A stretch of DNA of 64,000 bases from an uncultured Syntrophomonadaceae bacterium (lineage in GTDB: Bacteria > Bacillota > Dethiobacteria > DTU022): assembly GCA_964390725.1 (NCBI GenBank), contig CAYMIW010000002.1, forward strand, positions 6,875 through 70,874, in the 5' to 3' direction. A model generated the notes under the pieces. That model was not told the origin of the DNA. It ran no database searches and saw only the letters and a program-made list of their open reading frames with translations. A program made the translations under genes and the position numbers. This document shows, in pieces, positions 1-8,908 of the stretch (position 1 is the first letter of the stretch; each line of letters opens with the position of its first letter).

Positions 1-514
1 AATTCTTCTTGGTCGAAAACCATATATCAAGTGGGACGCAACGTCAGAAGATATGCAGATCGTGCGCGACATAATGAAGAAAATGAAGTTGGAAGACTTT
101 GCACTGCGCAATGTTGCCGAGCTTTCAGGCGGAGAAACACAGAAGGTAATGCTGGCCAGAGCGCTTGCCCAGGAACCAAGACTATTACTGCTTGATGAGC
201 CCACGAGCAACCTTGACCCGCGCAATCAACATGAAGTGCTCCGTCTAGTTAAGATAATCGCCCGGGAGCACAATATCTGCGTGGCTATCGTTATTCACGA
301 CCTCAACCTCGCGGTTCGTTACTGCGACCGTTTCTTATTCCTCAAGGAGTCGAAAGTTTTTTCTTATGGCGGCTTAGAGGTTATGACCCCGGAAAATATA
401 GAAGAAGTATATCAAATACATGCTCAAATTATAGAATACAAAGGAGTCCCGGTTATAGTTCCTTTTCCTGATGATGAAGTAAATGTTAATTATTCTGTCG
501 GAAAAATTAAATAA
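1..514 (+). CDS. ABC transporter ATP-binding protein, iron-chelate/cobalamin uptake type (FepC/FecE/BtuD-like), 5'-truncated at window edge
   Basis: Reading frame is open from base 2. ABC signature LSGGETQKV, Walker B LLLLDEPTSNLD, and H-loop IVIHDLNLAVRYCDR typical of iron-siderophore/B12 importer ATPases. Confidence 0.8.
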   Translation, partial: ILLGRKPYIKWDATSEDMQIVRDIMKKMKLEDFALRNVAELSGGETQKVMLARALAQEPRLLLLDEPTSNLDPRNQHEVLRLVKIIAREHNICVAIVIHDLNLAVRYCDRFLFLKESKVFSYGGLEVMTPENIEEVYQIHAQIIEYKGVPVIVPFPDDEVNVNYSVGKIK

Positions 515-1026
515 AAGCAAATAAAAGCTTTAGCCGTAGACTCCCCGGTCATGGATAGATTTAAAGTGAAAGATTGTTGGTAAACATACAATTAAATCTC
601 CAATATGTGCGAGCTTTAAATGAGCTCGCGCTTTGCCGTACCGTATTATATGCAAAACTATTATGCCAAAATATTGTTTTGCAATAATAATTTTGGTATG
701 GTAGCCAGTAAAAGTACAGCAGGAATTTAGTATAAGGGAATGAATAATAGCTGTAAAGGGTACCTAGCCTGTTGTAATATTAAAGCATATGAGCAAGTAG
801 AGGCTATATTTATGGGAGGTGTATCAGAGGTACATGTCTGAATGTGTGTCACTTGTTTTAGTTTCTATAGGCATCGCACTAAACCTTGTGGGTTTTATTT
901 GTCAGGCAAAGCACTTTGCAATGGCTGGCGCGCCTATAGCAGTGAGCCGCTATAGCCAAGGGTAATAAAGTTTAAAAGAAGATAAAAACGAATGTTAATA
1001 AATTAAAGCTTTGGTCAAAGAAAAGG

Positions 1027-1380
1027 ATGAGAAACTTATCTGCTTCTGACAGCTTAAGCATTGAGCTAAAAGAAGAGACTTTTATTAACGAGCGTATTGG
1101 TTTTAAGTCAGAGGTCTCAAGAGCCAAACGGATTAATCGGCTCGAACAGGCTTTTGAATATATTTATGATGAGATAGATTATAAAGACACGAAAATAAAT
1201 CTGCAGCATCAACGATTATCCAAATCACTAAACAAATTAGAGGAGCAAGTAAATAAGGAGAGCAAGCGGTTGGAAGCGTTTTCTAAAGAAGCAGTAACAG
1301 GGGATGTAAGGTTGCAGCTAAGAGGCTTGGTTTTTATAGGATCGGGCACATTTTTAATTTGCCAACACTGTGTTCATTAG
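1027..1380 (+). CDS. hypothetical coiled-coil protein with hydrophobic C-terminus
   Basis: 117-aa ORF with weak RBS (aaaagga), charged heptad-like sequence (LEEQVNKESKRLEAF) and a C-terminal hydrophobic tail. No recognised domain. Confidence 0.35.
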   Translation: MRNLSASDSLSIELKEETFINERIGFKSEVSRAKRINRLEQAFEYIYDEIDYKDTKINLQHQRLSKSLNKLEEQVNKESKRLEAFSKEAVTGDVRLQLRGLVFIGSGTFLICQHCVH

Positions 1381-1430
1381 TGCAACGTTTGTTTAGCTGG
1401 CTATAATGGCGAGTTATTTTTGAGTATTTA

Positions 1431-2255
1431 ATGCTAGAGTGGCTTTATGTAATCTACCATAGCCTTTTATTCGGAAGCATTCACTTCGGATTCGGTTGTG
1501 AACTAAGAGTGGTGGGTCAAATGGTTATCAGTCATAAGTCCAGAAAACTTCTTTGGGGAAAATCTGGAAACCGTTGTGCAATTTGCAGAGAGACACTTTC
1601 TGTGGAGAAATATAATTCGGTTGATGAGTCCTTAATTGGAGAAGAATGCCATATCATATCAAAATCAAAACAAGGGCCTCGCCACGAAGAGAAAGAGAAT
1701 TTCAACTATGATTCTTATGAAAACCTCATCCTTCTATGCAGAAATCATCATTCATTGATAGATCAGCAGTGGGATACATACACGATAGAATTAGTACGGG
1801 AGCTAAAAAGAAATCACGAGAAATGGGTAAGTAAAAAACTGCATGACGATAAAAAGAAGCCTGCAGAGATAAAGAGAATTGAAGATAATATACCAAAAGT
1901 GCTCACAGTGATAAAAGACGGAAAAACCTTGTTTGGTTTGATTAAAGGTGTCATGGCACATAATTTTGATTATGATGAAATAAAGAATAATGTGGAAAAG
2001 GAAATCATTCAGGAACTTAATTGCTGTATAAGTGAAACTATTGATGCCTGGGACTTGTATGAAGGAAGTTCATATATTGATTTGCACATAATGTTAGATG
2101 AGATAATTAGAAAACTAAGTGATATAGGAATCATGGTTTTTGGTGAGAATGAATTGATGTATTTGACTGGTGGAAACTCATCAGAAGATACACCGTGGAA
2201 GGTTGCTTATATCAAAGTAATGCATTCAGATAATCCTGAAGTATTAAAATTGTAA
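1431..2255 (+). CDS. HNH endonuclease domain protein with ~150-aa C-terminal domain of unknown function (alternative start ATG 1521)
   Basis: CAICRETL...ECHIISKSKQG...NLILLCRNHHSLID gives the C-x2-C / H / N / H-H spacing of the HNH nuclease motif. Downstream region has no recognisable domain. Confidence 0.65.
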   Translation: MLEWLYVIYHSLLFGSIHFGFGCELRVVGQMVISHKSRKLLWGKSGNRCAICRETLSVEKYNSVDESLIGEECHIISKSKQGPRHEEKENFNYDSYENLILLCRNHHSLIDQQWDTYTIELVRELKRNHEKWVSKKLHDDKKKPAEIKRIEDNIPKVLTVIKDGKTLFGLIKGVMAHNFDYDEIKNNVEKEIIQELNCCISETIDAWDLYEGSSYIDLHIMLDEIIRKLSDIGIMVFGENELMYLTGGNSSEDTPWKVAYIKVMHSDNPEVLKL

Positions 2256-2395
2256 GTGAGTGTGGAGAAATAGGGCCAGACTCGTCTCTCTTTATTAGTT
2301 ATAATATCTAACAATAAATGTTGCATAATGTTACAATTAGGTGTAAACTATCTGAGAGTGATGCGTTCATATGTATTGTAGAAAGGAGGGGTATC

Positions 2396-2722
2396 ATGAA
2401 TAAATTAGCAGATCGTATTAAAGCATGTAGGAATAAATTGCACCTCTCCCAGGAATATGTAGCGAATTATATGGCTATGAACAGAGCGACGATAACACAA
2501 ATCGAACTTGGTAAAAGGAAGGTTGCTGCTGAAGAACTTGCAAAATTTAGCACTTTATTTGGTATATCAGCAGATGCACTTCTTCATGGTGAAAATATTG
2601 GAGCACCAGTAACAGTTTTCGCCAGAAGTTTTAGTGAGCTTGATGAAAAAGATCAAGATGAAATTATGAGCTTGATGCAGTTTAAAAAACTCATGAAAGC
2701 GCAAAGTCTCATTAATGAATGA
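2396..2722 (+). CDS. XRE-family helix-turn-helix transcriptional regulator
   Basis: RBS aaaggaggg 6 nt before ATG 2396. LSQEYVANYMAMNRATITQIELGKRKV is a Cro/C1 HTH. Stop overlaps the start of the next gene (ATGA at 2715). Confidence 0.8.
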   Translation: MNKLADRIKACRNKLHLSQEYVANYMAMNRATITQIELGKRKVAAEELAKFSTLFGISADALLHGENIGAPVTVFARSFSELDEKDQDEIMSLMQFKKLMKAQSLINE

Positions 2723-4070
2723 TTTTTATAGTGCTGCTAAATCTATGGAAAATGCTGAAGAACTGGCTGAATTATACCTGCAACACTACTATAAAGATCG
2801 CGAAATATCGTTTCCTATTAACCCCTTTCAGATGCTGATAGATGAAGGCGTAAAGTTTGTCATCCGCGACTTCGGAAAGCTGGAAGGGGTTTATATTCCT
2901 GCCCATGATCAAGATGACATTCCTATTGTCGGTATCAATTTAAACCGACCAATCACTCGCCAACGCTTTACTGCAGCGCATGAATTATGTCACTTTATCA
3001 AGGATTCCGAAGGCCAGATATGCCCAAAAATTGGGATAAAATCGGCCATAGAGAAGTTCGCTGATAGTTTTGCTTCAGGAATACTGATGCCGTTAGGTGA
3101 ATTGCGATTACAAGTAGATAAGCGCAGGGAAAATGGATATGTTAATTTTGACGATATACTAGAAATAGCTGATTACTTTGGTGTCAGCTTTGAATCTTGT
3201 TTGTTCCGTATTGCATATTTAATTCATGCGGTACATGGTAATACTGAGATTAAGGAATTGAGGAAAAGAATCCGAAAATACAAACCAGATTATAAACGGA
3301 AAGAATGCGGATTTCATAACGTATCTCTTTACGATGGATTAATTAATTCGTATGAACATGCACTCAGGTTTATTCCAAATAAATTTGCACTTAATGTATT
3401 CCAAAATAAGTATATTTATAATGACAGCCGTTTGGAGGGCGTAGATGTTGATATTGAGACGGCTGCTGAAATTGTTACTGATATTCGACTTAGGAAGCAA
3501 AGAAGTAAATATTGCACAGAAGAAAACGAAGCTTATTTATCAATCGCCGGACATTCAACCATGTATTCTTTGATTTTTGAATTGCCGTTACCGGATAAAT
3601 GCTCTGTATTTGATATGGTTACATTACACAGAAGATTATACTCCTGCTTCCCATACCCTGAATATGGCGGACAATTTCGTGATAGTAACGCACTTGTTTT
3701 AGGAGCAAAATTTGAAACGACTGACTACAAAGATATATTACGTAGATTGATAGAACTCGATGAAAAAGCGAAAACTGTTTTTGAATTAAGATCAGAAACT
3801 TCTATTAGCTCATACTTAAAATCTGCTATTCAACTGCATCATGAATTAACAGTTGTCCATCCCTTTAATGATGGAAATGGCCGCACATTAAGAGCTTTTT
3901 TAAATGTTATGCTGATACGAAACTATCTTACGCCTGTGTATCTCAAGGTTGAAGATAAAAATGAGTACATTGAGGCCCTTGCTGCTGCAGACAAGGATGC
4001 AGATTATTCTCAGTTGTTTGAGCTCTTTTATAAAGCAATATTGAGGACAAATGTTGAATTGACCAGATAA
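2715..4070 (+). CDS. ImmA/IrrE-family (DUF955) zinc metallopeptidase fused to a C-terminal Fic (FIDO) domain
   Basis: N-terminal HEXXH (AAHELCHFI) in a DUF955/ImmA context. C-terminal canonical Fic motif HPFNDGNGRTLRAF. Translationally coupled to the upstream XRE gene. Confidence 0.75.
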   Translation: MNDFYSAAKSMENAEELAELYLQHYYKDREISFPINPFQMLIDEGVKFVIRDFGKLEGVYIPAHDQDDIPIVGINLNRPITRQRFTAAHELCHFIKDSEGQICPKIGIKSAIEKFADSFASGILMPLGELRLQVDKRRENGYVNFDDILEIADYFGVSFESCLFRIAYLIHAVHGNTEIKELRKRIRKYKPDYKRKECGFHNVSLYDGLINSYEHALRFIPNKFALNVFQNKYIYNDSRLEGVDVDIETAAEIVTDIRLRKQRSKYCTEENEAYLSIAGHSTMYSLIFELPLPDKCSVFDMVTLHRRLYSCFPYPEYGGQFRDSNALVLGAKFETTDYKDILRRLIELDEKAKTVFELRSETSISSYLKSAIQLHHELTVVHPFNDGNGRTLRAFLNVMLIRNYLTPVYLKVEDKNEYIEALAAADKDADYSQLFELFYKAILRTNVELTR

Positions 4071-4176
4071 ACAAGATAGGGGATACTTTATTTGACTTCT
4101 TGTTAAGCTTCTTCAAGTTAACCAAACAGCCCCTCTGATTAATTAATCCAGCTTCGTGAAGCCTTATAGTAAGGTT

Positions 4177-4272
4177 GCGGAGAATAACCCCATATTCAGT
4201 GCAATATTTGCGGAGAATAGTTGACTGTGCGGAGATTAAATGGTATATTTGTTGCATAATGTGCGGAGATTA
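4177..4272 (+). promoter_or_regulatory. Four direct repeats GCGGAGA(A/T)TA (4177, 4210, 4229, 4263) overlapping a sigma-A-like promoter TTGACT(4221)-17-TATATT(4244) upstream of the Fic gene
   Basis: Exact 10-mers read from the sequence at the four positions. One copy sits in the promoter spacer and one overlaps the RBS. Confidence 0.4.
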
Positions 4273-4276
4273 TTTA

Positions 4277-5380
4277 ATGTATATTTATGAGAATCCAACA
4301 TGGCCGGAGTTTAAGTGGGGAAATGATAAAATTTTACCCCTGCTTTCTAATGTACGCTTTAAACAAGGAGCAATTGTTGGTGAAATGGGAGCTTTAGGTT
4401 TTGAATTAAAAGACCAGGCAAACCTTGAGATGTTAACGAAAGATATTATTAAAACAGCTGAAATAGAAGGAGAGCTGCTTAATCAAGATCAAGTGCGTTC
4501 ATCAATAGCCCGGCGCTTGGGTTTAGAAGTTTCTGGTTTAATAGCGTCCGACAGAAATGTTGATGGTATAGTTGATATGATGCTTGACGCAACAGGAAAT
4601 TACAACAAAGAACTTAACAAAGAAAGACTATACTCATGGCATAGTTCTCTATTCCCGGCAGGCTATAGTGGTATTAATAAAATAATCACTGCTAACTGGA
4701 GAAATGATTCAGCAGGGCCGATGCAAGTTGTATCAGGTCCTGTAAGTAAAGAAAAAGTGCATTACCAGGCTCCTGCTGCAGAAAAAGTTGATCAGGAAAT
4801 GCAACGATTCTTCGAATGGTTTAACGGCAGCCAGGAAATTGATTTAGTAATAAAGGCAGGCATTGCCCATCTCTGGTTTGTTACCATACACCCTTTTGAT
4901 GACGGTAACGGCAGGATAGCCAGGGCTTTAACAGATATGAGCCTGGCTCAATCCGACAAACAACCATATCGTTTTTACAGTATGTCAACGCAGATTAGAA
5001 ATGAAAGAGCAAGTTACTATGAAATACTGGAGAAAACGCAAAAAGGGAAGCTTGATATAACCGCATGGTTAGAGTGGTTTTTGAATTGTCTTTTAAATTC
5101 TCTGGAAGCTTCCGAAACAATCCTAAGCAAAGTTATTTTTAAACATAACTTTTGGCTTGCGCATGCTTCAAAGATAGACAATGACAGACAAAGGAAAGTG
5201 CTGAATCTGCTGCTGGATGGAATTGATGGAAAACTTACTACATCAAAATGGGCTAAGCTTTGCAAGTGTTCGCAAGATACAGCATTAAGAGATATACAAG
5301 ATTTAATAGACAAACAAATTTTATCTAAAATGCCCGGTGGTGGTAGAAGTACGAGTTATGCCATTAACAGAGAAGATTAA
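4277..5380 (+). CDS. Fic family protein (class II, N-terminal inhibitory helix; C-terminal winged-helix), putative AMP-transferase
   Basis: Canonical Fic motif HPFDDGNGRIARAL. Inhibitory-helix motif TAEIEGE ((S/T)xxxE(G/N)) upstream. ATG at 4277 lies downstream of the promoter-like element. The longer ORF from 4175 is less likely. Confidence 0.8.
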   Translation: MYIYENPTWPEFKWGNDKILPLLSNVRFKQGAIVGEMGALGFELKDQANLEMLTKDIIKTAEIEGELLNQDQVRSSIARRLGLEVSGLIASDRNVDGIVDMMLDATGNYNKELNKERLYSWHSSLFPAGYSGINKIITANWRNDSAGPMQVVSGPVSKEKVHYQAPAAEKVDQEMQRFFEWFNGSQEIDLVIKAGIAHLWFVTIHPFDDGNGRIARALTDMSLAQSDKQPYRFYSMSTQIRNERASYYEILEKTQKGKLDITAWLEWFLNCLLNSLEASETILSKVIFKHNFWLAHASKIDNDRQRKVLNLLLDGIDGKLTTSKWAKLCKCSQDTALRDIQDLIDKQILSKMPGGGRSTSYAINRED

Positions 5381-5622
5381 GCGAACGGGCATGATGAAGT
5401 TCTTTGAATACGGAAGTAAAGATATAGATTATCTAAAGTGCAGAGAAAAGAAGCTGGGCGCTGCTATAGAGTGAATAGGGTTTATTGAGCGGGCGGTAAT
5501 ACCCGATCCTTTTGCTGCCCTGATATCATCAACTCCCGCCTATCAAGTTTAATGTATAATGAAAGCAGGAGCTAATCAATTGTTTGGTTAGAAATAGCCG
5601 TAGGGAGGCAGTTCGTGACATG

Positions 5623-5877
5623 AGTAAAGACTATTTTAAGTTGCAGCGCCCCAGTCATTCACTACCGGGATTTGTTAAACAAACTCTGAAAAAGCGTGGG
5701 CTTCTGGAGGCATATCAGAAAAGACCTGCTTATCAGCAAAATGACTATATTGGCTGGATAAATGAAGTGAAACTTCCGGAGATCAAACAAAAGCGGCTTG
5801 ACCAAATGCTTGATGAGCTTGAGAAGGGTGGTATCTACATGGGTATGGACCACCCTTCTCCTCAAAAAAATGAATAA
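5623..5877 (+). CDS. YdeI/OmpD-associated family protein (DUF1801-like)
   Basis: C-terminal PAYQQNDYIGWINEVKLPEIKQKRLDQMLDELEKG resembles the conserved YdeI family C-terminus. Start chosen at MSKDYFK. Confidence 0.5.
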   Translation, partial: SKDYFKLQRPSHSLPGFVKQTLKKRGLLEAYQKRPAYQQNDYIGWINEVKLPEIKQKRLDQMLDELEKGGIYMGMDHPSPQKNE

Positions 5878-6155
5878 CATAAATGATCAGGGTCAAAGCT
5901 TGCAATCAAGCAAACCTTACAATAGCCTGTTTCCATGGACAGACCACTTCGAAAACCTCTATGATGAGGCTAAAATCTATGCGCTTGTCAGAGGAATTGT
6001 CGTTGATCTAAACATTGACGAGAATATGCGAATACATGACCTTGGCTGAGGGCGTGGCCTTTACAAACGCGCAGGTAAACAGGAATTTCTTGAGCAGATA
6101 GCCGTAATAAAAAGCACAAGAAATTGGTCTTAGGTAAATGATTGGAGGTTTATAA

Positions 6156-6800
6156 ATGAACAGAATCATTAGGATTAGGAATGAAAAAGAATCAGATTAT
6201 GAGAAAGTAGAAGACATCACCAGGAAAGCTTTTTGGAATTTATATATCCCGGGATGTATTGAACACTATTTAGTTCATGTTATGCGGCCACATATAGATT
6301 TTCTGCCGGAGTTGGATTTGGTGATTGAAGTTGATAATCAAATCATCGGGAATGTTATGTATACAAAAACAAAACTAATCGATGAGGATGGTGAAGGAAA
6401 AGACATCCTTACATTCGGTCCAGTTTGCATTTTACCAGAATATCAGAGAAAGGGGTATGGAAAAAAACTAATGGAGCACTCCTTTGAACAGGCAGTTGCG
6501 CTTGGTTATGATGTGATTGTGATTTATGGTAACCCAGGCAATTATGTAAGCCGCGGTTTTAAGAGTTGTAAGAAATACAATGTCTGTCTTGAGAATGGGA
6601 CATATCCGGCGGCAATGATAGTAAAAGAACTCAAGCCAGATGCACTGGACGGGAGAAAATGGGTTTACCATCAAAGTACAGTATATGAGATAGATGAACA
6701 AGAAGCAGGGCGCTTTGACGATGGGTTGGAGAGCCTGGAGAAAAAACATCAGCCAAGTCAGGAAGAATTTTATATTTACAGTCATTCTATAATACAGTGA
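6156..6800 (+). CDS. GNAT family N-acetyltransferase
   Basis: RBS ggagg. Acetyl-CoA binding motif QRKGYGKKLMEH. Confidence 0.8.
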   Translation: MNRIIRIRNEKESDYEKVEDITRKAFWNLYIPGCIEHYLVHVMRPHIDFLPELDLVIEVDNQIIGNVMYTKTKLIDEDGEGKDILTFGPVCILPEYQRKGYGKKLMEHSFEQAVALGYDVIVIYGNPGNYVSRGFKSCKKYNVCLENGTYPAAMIVKELKPDALDGRKWVYHQSTVYEIDEQEAGRFDDGLESLEKKHQPSQEEFYIYSHSIIQ

Positions 6801-7342
6801 ATATCCTTTCATGGTATAAGAGTAAGCTACAACTTCCTATTAGCAGGTGGGGCAGATGAAAAACCTGGGAATATAAGTTTAAAAGCGTTATGGTAACTAT
6901 TCTCATTATCACAAACAAAATTATAACCCGGAATATATAATATAAGATGGCGCGAGATGAAGGAGCAAAAGACGCGCTTGGTTTTAAAAAAGGCAATACT
7001 CCCAAAGATTTGCTCAAAAGGTATACCATCTTCGGATTTTGAAGAATGTTTCGCCACTGTGCCGCTGTTTTGGAAAAAGGTAACACAAAGCGAGATTATA
7101 CCGAGACTCTGTACCCTGTTGAATCAGGAGCCGAGAGGCCTCCTTGGAGTGAGCACCTGCATGAACGGCAAGAATTTCCGAATAGATGGCATCATAATAA
7201 TTGCTAAGTTTAGTATCTAATTTATATTGACTACTCCACTATTATAATTAATAAGGCGAATAGGGAGGCAGGTAGGGCTGGAAATATTAAATTGACAGAT
7301 CTGACCCTATAAGAACTCTCATCTTAAACTGGAAGTGCGGTA

Positions 7343-8908
7343 GTGCCAATGGTTCAAATAGTAGTGCTTCTCTATCTTTTCTTTGCAGTGCTGGTGGCCC
7401 TGTCTTTTGCTATTTACTTGCTCAACCGGGGGCGAACCGGTGTTACAATTAGTTTTGCATTGTTGAACCTTTGCATTGCTGTATATCTGCTCGGGTATAT
7501 GGTCGAAATTAGTGTAATAAATCTCTCAGACATGCTGTTTTGGAATCAGATACAATACATGGGGATCCCCTTTTTACCTTCTTTCTGGCTTCTGGTTTGT
7601 TTACTCTACACCAAAAAACTTAATAAAATATCTTTAATGCCTACACTGATTCTATTTGTCTTTCCGGTTATTGTTTTTTTAGCCCGGTTGACCAATGAGT
7701 TTCACCATTTATTCTATGCATCATATGAAGTTATCAGCTTTGGCAGCTTGAATCTGCTGCGCTTAACAAAAGGCCCTGTATATCAAGCGCATACCATATT
7801 TGCGACGTTATGCTTAATAGTTGCAACGGTAACTTACCTTCACGCTGCCGGGAAAGTCGAGGGAAGGGAAAGGCAGGGATATCAGCTGATGCTGATATCT
7901 TCGATGATTCCTTATGCAGCGCTGCTATTAATGATTTTTGATCCTACCAACAAGGGTATAGATTATGCAGCTTTTCTATTTCCTGTTTCGCTCTGTTTGA
8001 TCTTCTTTGCATTATCACAATACGACGTGCTGTCTATCAGGGCTTTTGCTAAAGATAATTTATTTTACCAGAGTCAAGATGCAATGCTGGTTATTGATAA
8101 GGAAGGGCTACTGCTGGATTATAATTGGCAGGCCCGAGACCTGTTTTTACCTCTTGCAGATGGTTCTAAAGTTAAAGAAAAACAAATTCAACAAACATTA
8201 CAGGGATACCCACAATTAATTGAAGTAATTAAAGCCGGAGTTTCTACAGATTTGATTCTGGATGTAATAAATAATAAAAGGCATTATGAAGTCAGGTGCA
8301 CTATTTTAACAAACCTTCACCGGCGGGTGGTCGGGAAAATAGTGACCCTTAGAGACATTACAGATCGTAAAATTATTGAGGAAGCCCTACGCGAAAGCGA
8401 AGAAAAACACAGGATGTTAGCTACAACCGATACATTGACAGGTTTACACAATCGGTTTTACTTTATGAAAAGGGCCGAAGATGAATTTAATCGGTTCCAG
8501 CGTTACGGCAAGCCTTTTAGTCTTTTAATGATTGATCTTGATTGTTTTAAAGAAGTAAACGACAAGTATGGTCACGCTGGTGGGGATGAAGTGCTGAAGC
8601 AAATTGGATTTCTTATGGGTGGCAATTTTAGAAAAACAGATATTACCGGCAGGCTGGGTGGCGAAGAATTCTGTGTGCTTATGCCGGAAACCACGCCTGA
8701 AGATGCCTGGACAGCTGCAGAAGCATTTCGTCAAACTTTGGAAAATACGATCATTAATAATGGAGACCGTGCTATTACGGTCACCTGCAGTATAGGTATT
8801 TCCAGCTCCAATAAAAACAACCACCGTTTTGATGAAGTTTTGAAACAGGCGGATCAGGCCCTCTATCGTGCAAAACACCAAGGTCGAAACCGTTCCTGTC
8901 TGCTTTAG
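7343..8908 (+). CDS. membrane-anchored PAS-GGDEF diguanylate cyclase (about 7 N-terminal TM helices)
   Basis: About 230 aa of hydrophobic helices, then a PAS-like region, then GGDEF domain with DTLTGLHNR and active-site RLGGEEF. Confidence 0.85.
   Translation: MPMVQIVVLLYLFFAVLVALSFAIYLLNRGRTGVTISFALLNLCIAVYLLGYMVEISVINLSDMLFWNQIQYMGIPFLPSFWLLVCLLYTKKLNKISLMPTLILFVFPVIVFLARLTNEFHHLFYASYEVISFGSLNLLRLTKGPVYQAHTIFATLCLIVATVTYLHAAGKVEGRERQGYQLMLISSMIPYAALLLMIFDPTNKGIDYAAFLFPVSLCLIFFALSQYDVLSIRAFAKDNLFYQSQDAMLVIDKEGLLLDYNWQARDLFLPLADGSKVKEKQIQQTLQGYPQLIEVIKAGVSTDLILDVINNKRHYEVRCTILTNLHRRVVGKIVTLRDITDRKIIEEALRESEEKHRMLATTDTLTGLHNRFYFMKRAEDEFNRFQRYGKPFSLLMIDLDCFKEVNDKYGHAGGDEVLKQIGFLMGGNFRKTDITGRLGGEEFCVLMPETTPEDAWTAAEAFRQTLENTIINNGDRAITVTCSIGISSSNKNNHRFDEVLKQADQALYRAKHQGRNRSCLL

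Follow-up and report, generated by a model that had tools for sequence, protein, structure and literature searches.

We analysed a 64,000-nt stretch of DNA, hereafter the window, from an uncultured Syntrophomonadaceae bacterium (contig CAYMIW010000002.1, positions 6,875 to 70,874), with a focus on a block of five co-oriented open reading frames (ORFs) at window positions 1027–5380. The block contains ORF1, a gene for an HNH nuclease-domain protein (ORF2), an XRE regulator gene (ORF3), a gene in which an ImmA/IrrE/CapP-like M78 peptidase is fused to a Fic domain (ORF4), and the gene of a second Fic protein, Fic2 (ORF5). All five ORFs lie on the + strand, as do the two gene remnants and the promoter regions of the block, and were found where a preliminary description of the sequence had placed them. 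That description took the five genes for one candidate defence system. We conclude with high confidence that they do not form one system, and that the XRE gene and the peptidase–Fic fusion very probably constitute a self-contained two-gene unit. The best explanation of the patch is that it consists of three independently inherited defence- or toxin-type cassettes (the XRE/M78-Fic pair, the HNH gene and Fic2) with two decayed genes at its edges, forming a small accessory locus of defence-island-like character. We also lean, with some reserve, towards the complete form of this explanation, in which the pair acts through cleavage, derepression and AMPylation, the HNH protein is an effector and Fic2 is autoregulated.

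The evidence for independence comes from co-occurrence. The neighbourhood of the fusion gene was surveyed in its 80 best genome loci, with 8 kb taken on either side, by tblastn for the genes of the window and by clustering of the neighbouring ORFs. A homologue of the XRE gene was present in 76 of the 80 loci, each time directly upstream of the fusion gene; three of the other four loci end at a contig edge, giving 76 of 77 usable loci. No homologue of the HNH gene or of ORF1 was detected within 8 kb of the fusion gene in the 80 loci, and a SoFic-like gene was found in only one, as a weak match of 25% identity. ORF clustering revealed no other conserved neighbour and no conserved orientation of the pair in these loci, the flanks of which are unrelated. 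The HNH gene likewise showed no conserved neighbour in 80 metagenome loci, and ORF1 was absent beside it in all 80, even next to HNH relatives of 71–79% identity. Only the XRE gene therefore travels with the fusion gene, and the HNH gene has no conserved partner; it is on these grounds that we separate the five genes.

A single multi-component defence system, with a nuclease and two Fic effectors placed under a helix-turn-helix (HTH)/peptidase switch, is suggested by the co-orientation and close spacing of the genes and by the defence-type domains that each of them carries. However, the five-gene combination was recovered only on near-identical contigs with the same gene order, which represent the same organism in several metagenomes, and homologues of the whole block were not co-localized elsewhere in either the 80 fusion loci or the 80 HNH loci. 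Furthermore, ORF1 is a pseudogene, Fic2 has its own promoter and repeats, and no XRE-type operator with one mismatch or fewer lies upstream of the HNH gene or of Fic2. A five-gene system is, in our view, extremely improbable. It should be noted that domain matches of the PADLOC style can make a chance neighbourhood of cassettes look like a multi-gene system. The earlier impression that the block resembles a defence island did gain support, from the Cap5/SPARHA-clade HNH domain, the PADLOC SoFic match of Fic2 and the capH, capP, RmrA and PDC-S04 matches of the pair. The functions of all the cassettes in the block are ones that we infer.

The XRE/M78-Fic pair and its relatives

The XRE gene (2396–2722) encodes a CapH-like repressor of 108 aa in which Pfam identifies HTH_3. 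Its most likely start is position 2396, which is preceded by the ribosome-binding site AAAGGAGG. The fusion gene (2715–4070) encodes 451 aa, and Pfam places Peptidase_M78 (formerly DUF955) at aa 45–166 and Fic at aa 300–400, in agreement with the domains first assigned to both genes. The end of the XRE gene overlaps the beginning of the fusion gene by 8 nt (ATGAATGA, 2715–2722), which bears out the translational coupling that had been proposed for them. The two reading frames overlap or lie no more than 6 nt apart in 72 of 74 loci, with an 8-nt overlap, as in the window, being the most frequent arrangement (22 loci). Pairwise identities among the XRE proteins follow those among the fusion proteins closely (Pearson r=0.91, 2415 pairs).

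The fusion family is large, comprising 931 clusters at E≤1e-5 among 8000 scored candidates; nearly all of the best 120 clusters are ~450 aa in length and carry both Pfam domains. A relative of the fusion is encoded in 379 stretches of species-representative genomes, the best 80 of which are essentially full-length, at 57–32% identity. The hosts of these 80 are mainly Clostridia and Bacilli, with scattered metagenome-assembled genomes (MAGs) labelled Spirochaetales, Chloroflexi, Bacteroidota and Synergistaceae, and the family as a whole is found in hundreds of genomes, mostly of gut and anaerobic Bacillota. The direct neighbours of the pair are diverse: ABC transporters, VanZ, TGT and glucuronate isomerase occur, as do serine recombinases, DNA methylases, a type I restriction enzyme, DRT/AbiP2 reverse transcriptases and MADS components. 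At two loci, in MAGs labelled Chloroflexi and Flexilinea, the pair lies between brxC and pglX of a bacteriophage exclusion (BREX) operon (L040, 7651–9311; L048, 4895–6576).

None of 50,697 phage genomes matched the pair, and among 72,556 plasmids a single one did. This plasmid match (L178, NZ_CP154914.1) is a circular element of Bacillus pumilus, 40.5 kb in size, that contains phage genes and in which the pair, at 4630–6365, is located between the holin/endolysin genes and the integrase, a classical cargo position. Seven IMG/VR contigs also carry the pair, and serine-recombinase integrase/invertase families were the commonest PHROG matches around it. These contigs, and the matches of both the XRE and the fusion protein to PHROG repressor and metalloprotease families, would suit an ImmR/ImmA-type switch for the lysogeny or excision of a prophage or of an integrative and conjugative element (ICE). 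We give this reading almost no credence. The B. pumilus element has a separate switch, a canonical ImmA of 167 aa and an HTH protein beside the integrase, so that two peptidase systems coexist, and the pair follows the lysis cassette; the phage genomes gave no matches, and in the source genome no phage, ICE or other mobile-element genes occur within 10 kb. The preliminary description had itself allowed for a prophage regulatory region, but there are no phage structural genes within 10 kb on either side of the block, which is therefore not such a region. The setting of the pair fits a mobile accessory cassette rather than a switch that controls lysogeny or a regulator tied to one partner operon.

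The peptidase half of the fusion has its HExxH motif at aa 89–93 (nt 2979–2993) and the distal Glu ligand, Glu113, at 3051–3053. Across 80 homologues there is no variation at H89, H93 or E113, and at least 90% have E90. Cys103 (3021–3023) is also invariant in the 80 homologues, and is aligned (HMMER, 7T5T) with Cys113 of Thauera CapP, the cysteine-switch residue of that protein (bioRxiv 10.1101/2022.04.27.489752); the corresponding loop of the fusion is shorter than that of CapP and has low predicted local distance difference test (pLDDT) values. The PADLOC capP profile matches only the first part of the protein, at profile positions 8–153 of 242, from which we conclude that the GAF domain is absent. 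The peptidase additionally gives PADLOC RmrA matches; the matches to the RmrA models are confined to one part, either the peptidase or the HTH. By sequence, the peptidase domain (window 2715–3314) is matched best by PDB 9vzy_A, a solved 393-aa HTH and peptidase protein similar in size to RmrA, in which the residue aligned with the cysteine switch is likewise a Cys.

The AlphaFold2 model of the fusion has a pLDDT of 91.6 and a predicted template modelling score (pTM) of 0.90. Residues ~225–451 are modelled as a Fic domain, and the fold matches class II FICD and SoFic. The Fic motif HPFNDGNGRTLR occupies aa 382–393 (3858–3893); in the family motif HPFx(D/E)GNGRxxR, H382, G387–G389 and R393 are invariant, and P383, F384 and R390 are conserved in at least 90%. 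The putative inhibitory-helix motif DSRLEG (aa 237–242, 3423–3440) is part of a strongly conserved YIYNDSRxEG segment in which D237, S238 and E241 are invariant. The Fic domain matches the PADLOC PDC-S04 solo Fic candidates (1.9e-19), and the fusion also has a weak match to TIGR02613 (mob_myst_B). Both Fic proteins of the block had been predicted to be active, as both Fic motifs carry the catalytic histidine. The motifs are indeed intact in the fusion and in Fic2 (HPFDDGNGRIAR), but because both proteins retain the inhibitory glutamate, they are better described as catalytically competent but probably autoinhibited at rest.

The XRE protein consists of an HTH (aa ~4–65), a linker containing F75-A76-R77-x-F79 and a C-terminal helix, DQxEIMxLxxFK, and it matches PADLOC capH over essentially the full profile (7.1e-12, positions 3–98 of 103). 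Although the rest of the linker is variable, its R77 is invariant, and its F75 and A76 reach at least 90% conservation. CapH is cleaved between F82 and R83, ahead of its dimerization helices, and the sequence of the XRE protein points to FARxF as its likely cleavage site. Two putative operators and a promoter precede the XRE gene (2298–2349). Operator O1 (GTTATAATATCTAAC) is at 2298–2312, and the more degenerate O2 (GTTGCATAATGTTAC), at 2320–2334, overlaps the −35 element TTGCAT (2321–2326), which is separated by 17 nt from the −10 element TAAACT (2344–2349). Related loci share this layout, with a GTTAG-N5-CTAAC palindrome, a second related site containing the −35 element (TTGCAA/TTGACA) and then TATAAT. 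Palindromes with no more than two mismatches were present in 44 of 75 upstream regions, compared with 46 of 1480 control windows from the same loci. The sole operator-like site with one mismatch or fewer in the block is the one upstream of the XRE gene. Since the operators are conserved over its own promoter and no other such close site exists in the block, the XRE protein is most simply an autorepressor.

Comparison with known systems and proposed mechanism

CapH and CapP are DNA-damage-responsive regulators of cyclic-oligonucleotide-based antiphage signalling systems (CBASS) and other immune operons (Lau et al.; bioRxiv 10.1101/2022.04.27.489752; 10.64898/2026.05.16.725639). Like CapH and CapP, the pair combines a small XRE repressor that has a C-terminal oligomerization helix with an M78 HExxH peptidase encoded beside it, has a cysteine-switch residue at the aligned position (the loop is present in about a third of CapPs), and, in the linker of the repressor, carries a hydrophobic/Arg motif at the place of the CapH cleavage site. 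The two differ at the C-terminus of the peptidase protein, where CapP has a GAF domain that contributes to a groove for single-stranded DNA (ssDNA) and to the CapH dock, whereas the fusion has a Fic domain. In addition, the pair is self-contained, with no separate immune operon under its control in the 80 loci, and is ordered repressor then peptidase in one translationally coupled operon.

RosmerTA offers a second point of comparison, as it unites the same three functions (HTH, ImmA-type peptidase and toxin), which are also the parts of the three-component Xre-COG2856-toxin modules predicted by Makarova et al. 2009. In RosmerTA, RmrA is an HTH fused to a Zn-peptidase and the variable toxin RmrT is separate; here, in contrast, it is the HTH that is encoded on its own, while the peptidase is joined to the putative toxin, and no Fic toxin was found in the descriptions of RosmerTA that we consulted. 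Domain shuffling is typical of the ‘ImmA zone’ (PMC10440598). A search of the literature available to us found no paper on an ImmA-Fic or COG2856-Fic fusion. The XRE/M78-Fic pair is apparently a widespread and undescribed rearrangement of the RosmerTA/CapH-CapP design.

The pair is most likely a protease-gated, autorepressed Fic toxin. The conserved operators suggest that XRE dimers would sit on the two GTTAG-N5-CTAAC-type sites over their own −35 element and keep expression low. By alignment with its relatives, the N-terminal CapP/IrrE-type zinc peptidase of the fusion would be held inactive by the cysteine switch, Cys103, until a stress or infection signal freed it. The peptidase may then cut the XRE protein at or near FARxF, with its invariant Arg, splitting the HTH from the C-terminal dimerization helix. 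Cleaved XRE would leave the DNA, and derepression of the operon would yield a burst of fusion protein, with positive feedback because the peptidase is encoded in the same operon. The Fic domain, blocked by Glu241 at rest, would AMPylate an essential target once Glu241 was displaced; EF-Tu or gyrase/topoisomerase IV are plausible targets by analogy with other bacterial Fic toxins. The predicted outcome is growth arrest, as in abortive infection or a toxin–antitoxin (TA) system. This specific sequence of cleavage, derepression and AMPylation is, in our estimation, an even call.

Several observations weigh against the proposed mechanism and against a defence role for the pair. The operators of the window are degenerate, with one mismatch in O1 and a non-palindromic right half in O2. 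In the inhibitory motif of the fusion, D237-S-R-L-E241-G, an Asp stands where class II Fic proteins have Ser/Thr, although the Glu and the Gly are kept. The ssDNA-binding site of CapP and IrrE lies between their peptidase and GAF domains, and as the GAF domain, which provides half of the CapP ssDNA groove and the dock for the CapH HTH, is missing from the fusion, the sensing step of CapP is not transferable. Many neighbours of the pair are housekeeping genes, and only ~10% of its immediate neighbours match defence models. Finally, the phage and plasmid collections, in which cultured hosts are over-represented, yielded almost no instance of the pair.

It is conceivable, if quite unlikely, that the pair is a CapH/CapP-style regulator of neighbouring genes, in which the Fic domain replaces the GAF domain as a ligand- or nucleotide-sensing or XRE-modifying module and is not a toxin. 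This would accord with capH and capP as the best PADLOC matches of the two proteins, with the aligned cysteine switch, with the two loci between brxC and pglX, and with the pTM of 0.90, which suggests a fixed peptidase–Fic arrangement like that of the peptidase and GAF domains in CapP. A regulator of neighbouring genes is difficult to reconcile with the lack of any conserved neighbour or orientation in the 80 loci, many of which have housekeeping flanks, or with the restriction of close operator-like sites to the promoter of the pair itself. Moreover, the Fic catalytic motif and the inhibitory Glu are invariant or at least 90% conserved, as for an enzyme under selection.

Nor do we think it likely that the pair is a conventional type II TA module, in which, on the model of the XRE/Fic ‘mobile mystery protein A/B’ pairs, the XRE protein would neutralize Fic by binding, the peptidase would only turn over the antitoxin and there would be no phage defence. 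Addiction modules are common on plasmids, from which the pair is nearly absent, and the invariance of the peptidase site and of the cysteine switch implies that proteolysis is regulated, not constitutive; the positions that the pair occupies as cargo, within BREX operons and at the ends of prophages, also count against this reading. It is favoured by the tight translational coupling, the patchy distribution of the pair across phyla, the weak TIGR02613 match of the fusion and the listing of Xre-Fic/Doc and Xre-COG2856 pairs among TA-like modules (PMC2701414). A TA module overlaps mechanistically with the protease-gated Fic toxin that we prefer, and differs from it mainly in biological role.

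The HNH nuclease, Fic2 and the edges of the block

The HNH gene (1521–2255) most likely starts at 1521, where its homologues begin (MxISDKTRK), and the presence of Pfam HNH_2 agrees with its first description as a nuclease-domain gene. The protein has an N-terminal Cap5/SPARHA-type HNH domain (aa 1–~110), followed by a C-terminal domain (CTD) of ~130 aa (window 1848–2252). The HNH domain belongs to the Cap5/SPARHA effector clade, with matches that stop at ~residue 170. The match to PDC-M68A is partial (profile positions 5–114 of 253), and none of the proteins of the block matched PDC-M68B. The family is full-length at ~250 aa and spans phyla, and the protein of the window keeps all of the conserved Cys, His, Asn and Asp positions. 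HNH domains of this clade are reported to be activated by tetramerization and joined to many sensor modules (PMC12738770), and PDB 9OM4 is cited in the paper on SPARHA, an effector system in which the HNH protein is associated with a prokaryotic Argonaute (pAgo). The HNH domain of the window protein is of the same type as that of Cap5, the HNH-SAVED protein of CBASS. Unlike Cap5 and SPARHA (HNH-APAZ), however, the protein lacks both SAVED and APAZ, is not partnered by a CD-NTase or a pAgo, and carries the ~130-aa CTD instead.

The CTD is confidently folded in the model (pLDDT ~90) but matched nothing in PDB or PADLOC. When 1.84 billion representatives were scanned in full with HMMER, the domain was detected in 86 proteins, at the C-terminus in all but one. 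Its N-terminal partners in longer proteins are HNH_2, TIR_2 (P0272), the Schlafen domain AlbA_2 (P0264), SMEK_N (P0326) and HTH/HTH_3 (P0306). Pfam searches of the neighbours of the HNH family identified Mrr, N6_Mtase, Abi_C, Eco57I, TIR, RVT, Schlafen, UvrD and integrase genes. Effector swapping in this defence context suggests a single-protein defence gene with a regulatory or oligomerization CTD. The HNH protein may thus be a solo effector nuclease, in which the small CTD would take the place of SAVED or APAZ. We also considered a restriction–modification nuclease, and rejected it: the genes of 300–450 aa upstream of many homologues are mixed defence genes, with no consistent methyltransferase among 76 neighbours examined with Pfam.

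Fic2 (4277–5380, 367 aa) most likely starts at 4277, where DUF4172 begins. Its designation as a class II Fic protein held up: Pfam finds DUF4172 (8.9e-31) and Fic (6.7e-17), and the class II inhibitory motif TAEIEG is present in the DUF4172 N-terminus. The C-terminal winged HTH (DIP2311-like_C, HTH_DeoR) was detected only below the cut-off. Fic2 matches PADLOC SoFic over nearly its full length (1.8e-42, profile positions 16–350 of 361), phrog_5978 (1.2e-67) and, at full length, Coxiella CbFic2 (PDB 8CIL, 6.9e-100), which is its closest solved relative; we place it in the SoFic/CccR/CbFic2 group. It scores 48.5 bits against the NCBIfam SoFic equivalog NF046030, far below the cut-off of 550, and is therefore not an orthologue of Shewanella oneidensis SoFic.

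A separate promoter for Fic2, as first described, is apparent in the 206-nt spacer upstream of the gene, in the form of a promoter-like TTGACT-17-TATATT (4221–4249). It is bracketed by four direct repeats, TGCGGAGAWTA, within 4176–4272 (starts at 4176, 4209, 4228 and 4262), and on both strands of the window the octamer TGCGGAGA occurs only at these four places. The repeats are probably an operator array for the Fic2 gene, and may serve autoregulation by the winged HTH of Fic2 itself. Both SoFic and CccR bind the promoter of their own gene, at sites no more than 100 bp from the start codon (bioRxiv 10.64898/2026.07.09.737422); SoFic AMPylates EF-Tu, and Escherichia coli Sofic is toxic. Fic2 resembles the SoFic/CccR/CbFic2 proteins in its architecture, its inhibitory Glu and the repeats in its own promoter region, and differs from SoFic in that no AS1-like small antitoxin gene was identified for it. 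A small ORF after Fic2 that we considered for this role encodes the N-terminal part of a glycosylase and is broken by an in-frame stop. Fic2 would accordingly be an independent cassette encoding an autoregulated AMPylase of the SoFic/CbFic2 type, a known single-gene defence type.

Gene remnants mark both edges of the block. ORF1 (1027–1380), first described as a coiled-coil hypothetical, is not an intact gene, and no Pfam domain was found in it. Its family is rare, with only three other homologue clusters among 5.8 billion proteins; intact members are of 188–189 aa and contain two transmembrane segments, with hydrophobic segments at the N- and C-terminal ends. Alignment showed that ORF1 lacks ~75 N-terminal residues of its homologues, and tblastn located residues 1–16, 16–38 and 46–179 of a homologue in three different frames, at 846–893, 890–958 (with a stop inside) and 979–1377. 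ORF1 is thus the surviving C-terminal frame of a pseudogene (834–1380) of a two-transmembrane, coiled-coil membrane protein. Both an intact coiled-coil protein and a partner of the HNH gene were rejected as roles for ORF1, which is frameshifted and has no counterpart beside even the 71–79% identical HNH homologues.

A terminator-like hairpin is found at 1325–1347. ARAGORN predicted an 87-nt tRNA-Lys(ttt) at 1315–1401, overlapping the 3′ end of ORF1; this is probably a false positive, because Rfam finds no tRNA there at E≤0.1. Rfam gave no match to an RNA element at E≤0.1 over positions 1–7500, nor at the gathering score over the whole window. A non-coding spacer of ~320 nt (515–833) follows the upstream ABC ATPase gene and contains a GC-rich hairpin (~603–625) and 19-nt inverted repeats (653–695), also with no Rfam match.

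At the right edge, positions 5392–5556 correspond to the start of a DNA-3-methyladenine glycosylase gene, of which the first ~53 codons are left, interrupted by an in-frame TGA (5473–5475); the remainder of the gene is missing. The remnant shares 45% identity over all 53 residues with an annotated DNA-3-methyladenine glycosylase (tblastn, E 1e-9), and looks like the scar of a deletion or insertion. The remnants at the two edges indicate that the locus was shaped by insertion and deletion. The flanking genes named in the preliminary description, an ABC ATPase upstream and a GNAT gene downstream, are both present, the former as the last gene of an iron-type ABC operon that is visible on a longer contig; the glycosylase remnant and an OmdA/YdeI gene, both between Fic2 and the GNAT gene, had been omitted. 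The block had also been called AT-rich, which overstates a modest dip in GC content (36.9% over 515–5560, compared with 41.0% for the window).

Implications for bacterial immunity

It is tempting to extend these findings, and to speculate that the pair represents a new, widespread family of autonomous abortive-infection modules in which a CapP-like cysteine-switch protease and a Fic AMPylase sit in one protein, so that destruction of the repressor and arming of the toxin would both follow from a single sensing event, perhaps with the Fic domain sensing in place of GAF. Separately, the HNH CTD might be a regulatory or sensor module, as yet without a name, that effectors of the HNH, TIR, Schlafen-like and SMEK kinds exchange with one another. 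We offer this larger picture tentatively, and consider it doubtful.

Peptidases of the ImmA/IrrE/CapP type are emerging as general sensors of stress and infection in bacterial immunity. To our knowledge, they have so far been known as pure regulators (CapP, IrrE and ImmA) or as HTH-fused antitoxins (RosmerTA). If our interpretation is correct, the peptidase–Fic family would represent a compact and experimentally tractable coupling of sensor to effector, and would extend the defence repertoire by a Fic toxin that is regulated. The effector-swapping CTD of the HNH protein provides a second lead for the discovery of single-gene defence and, if its proposed role is true, would define a second family of single-protein defence genes.

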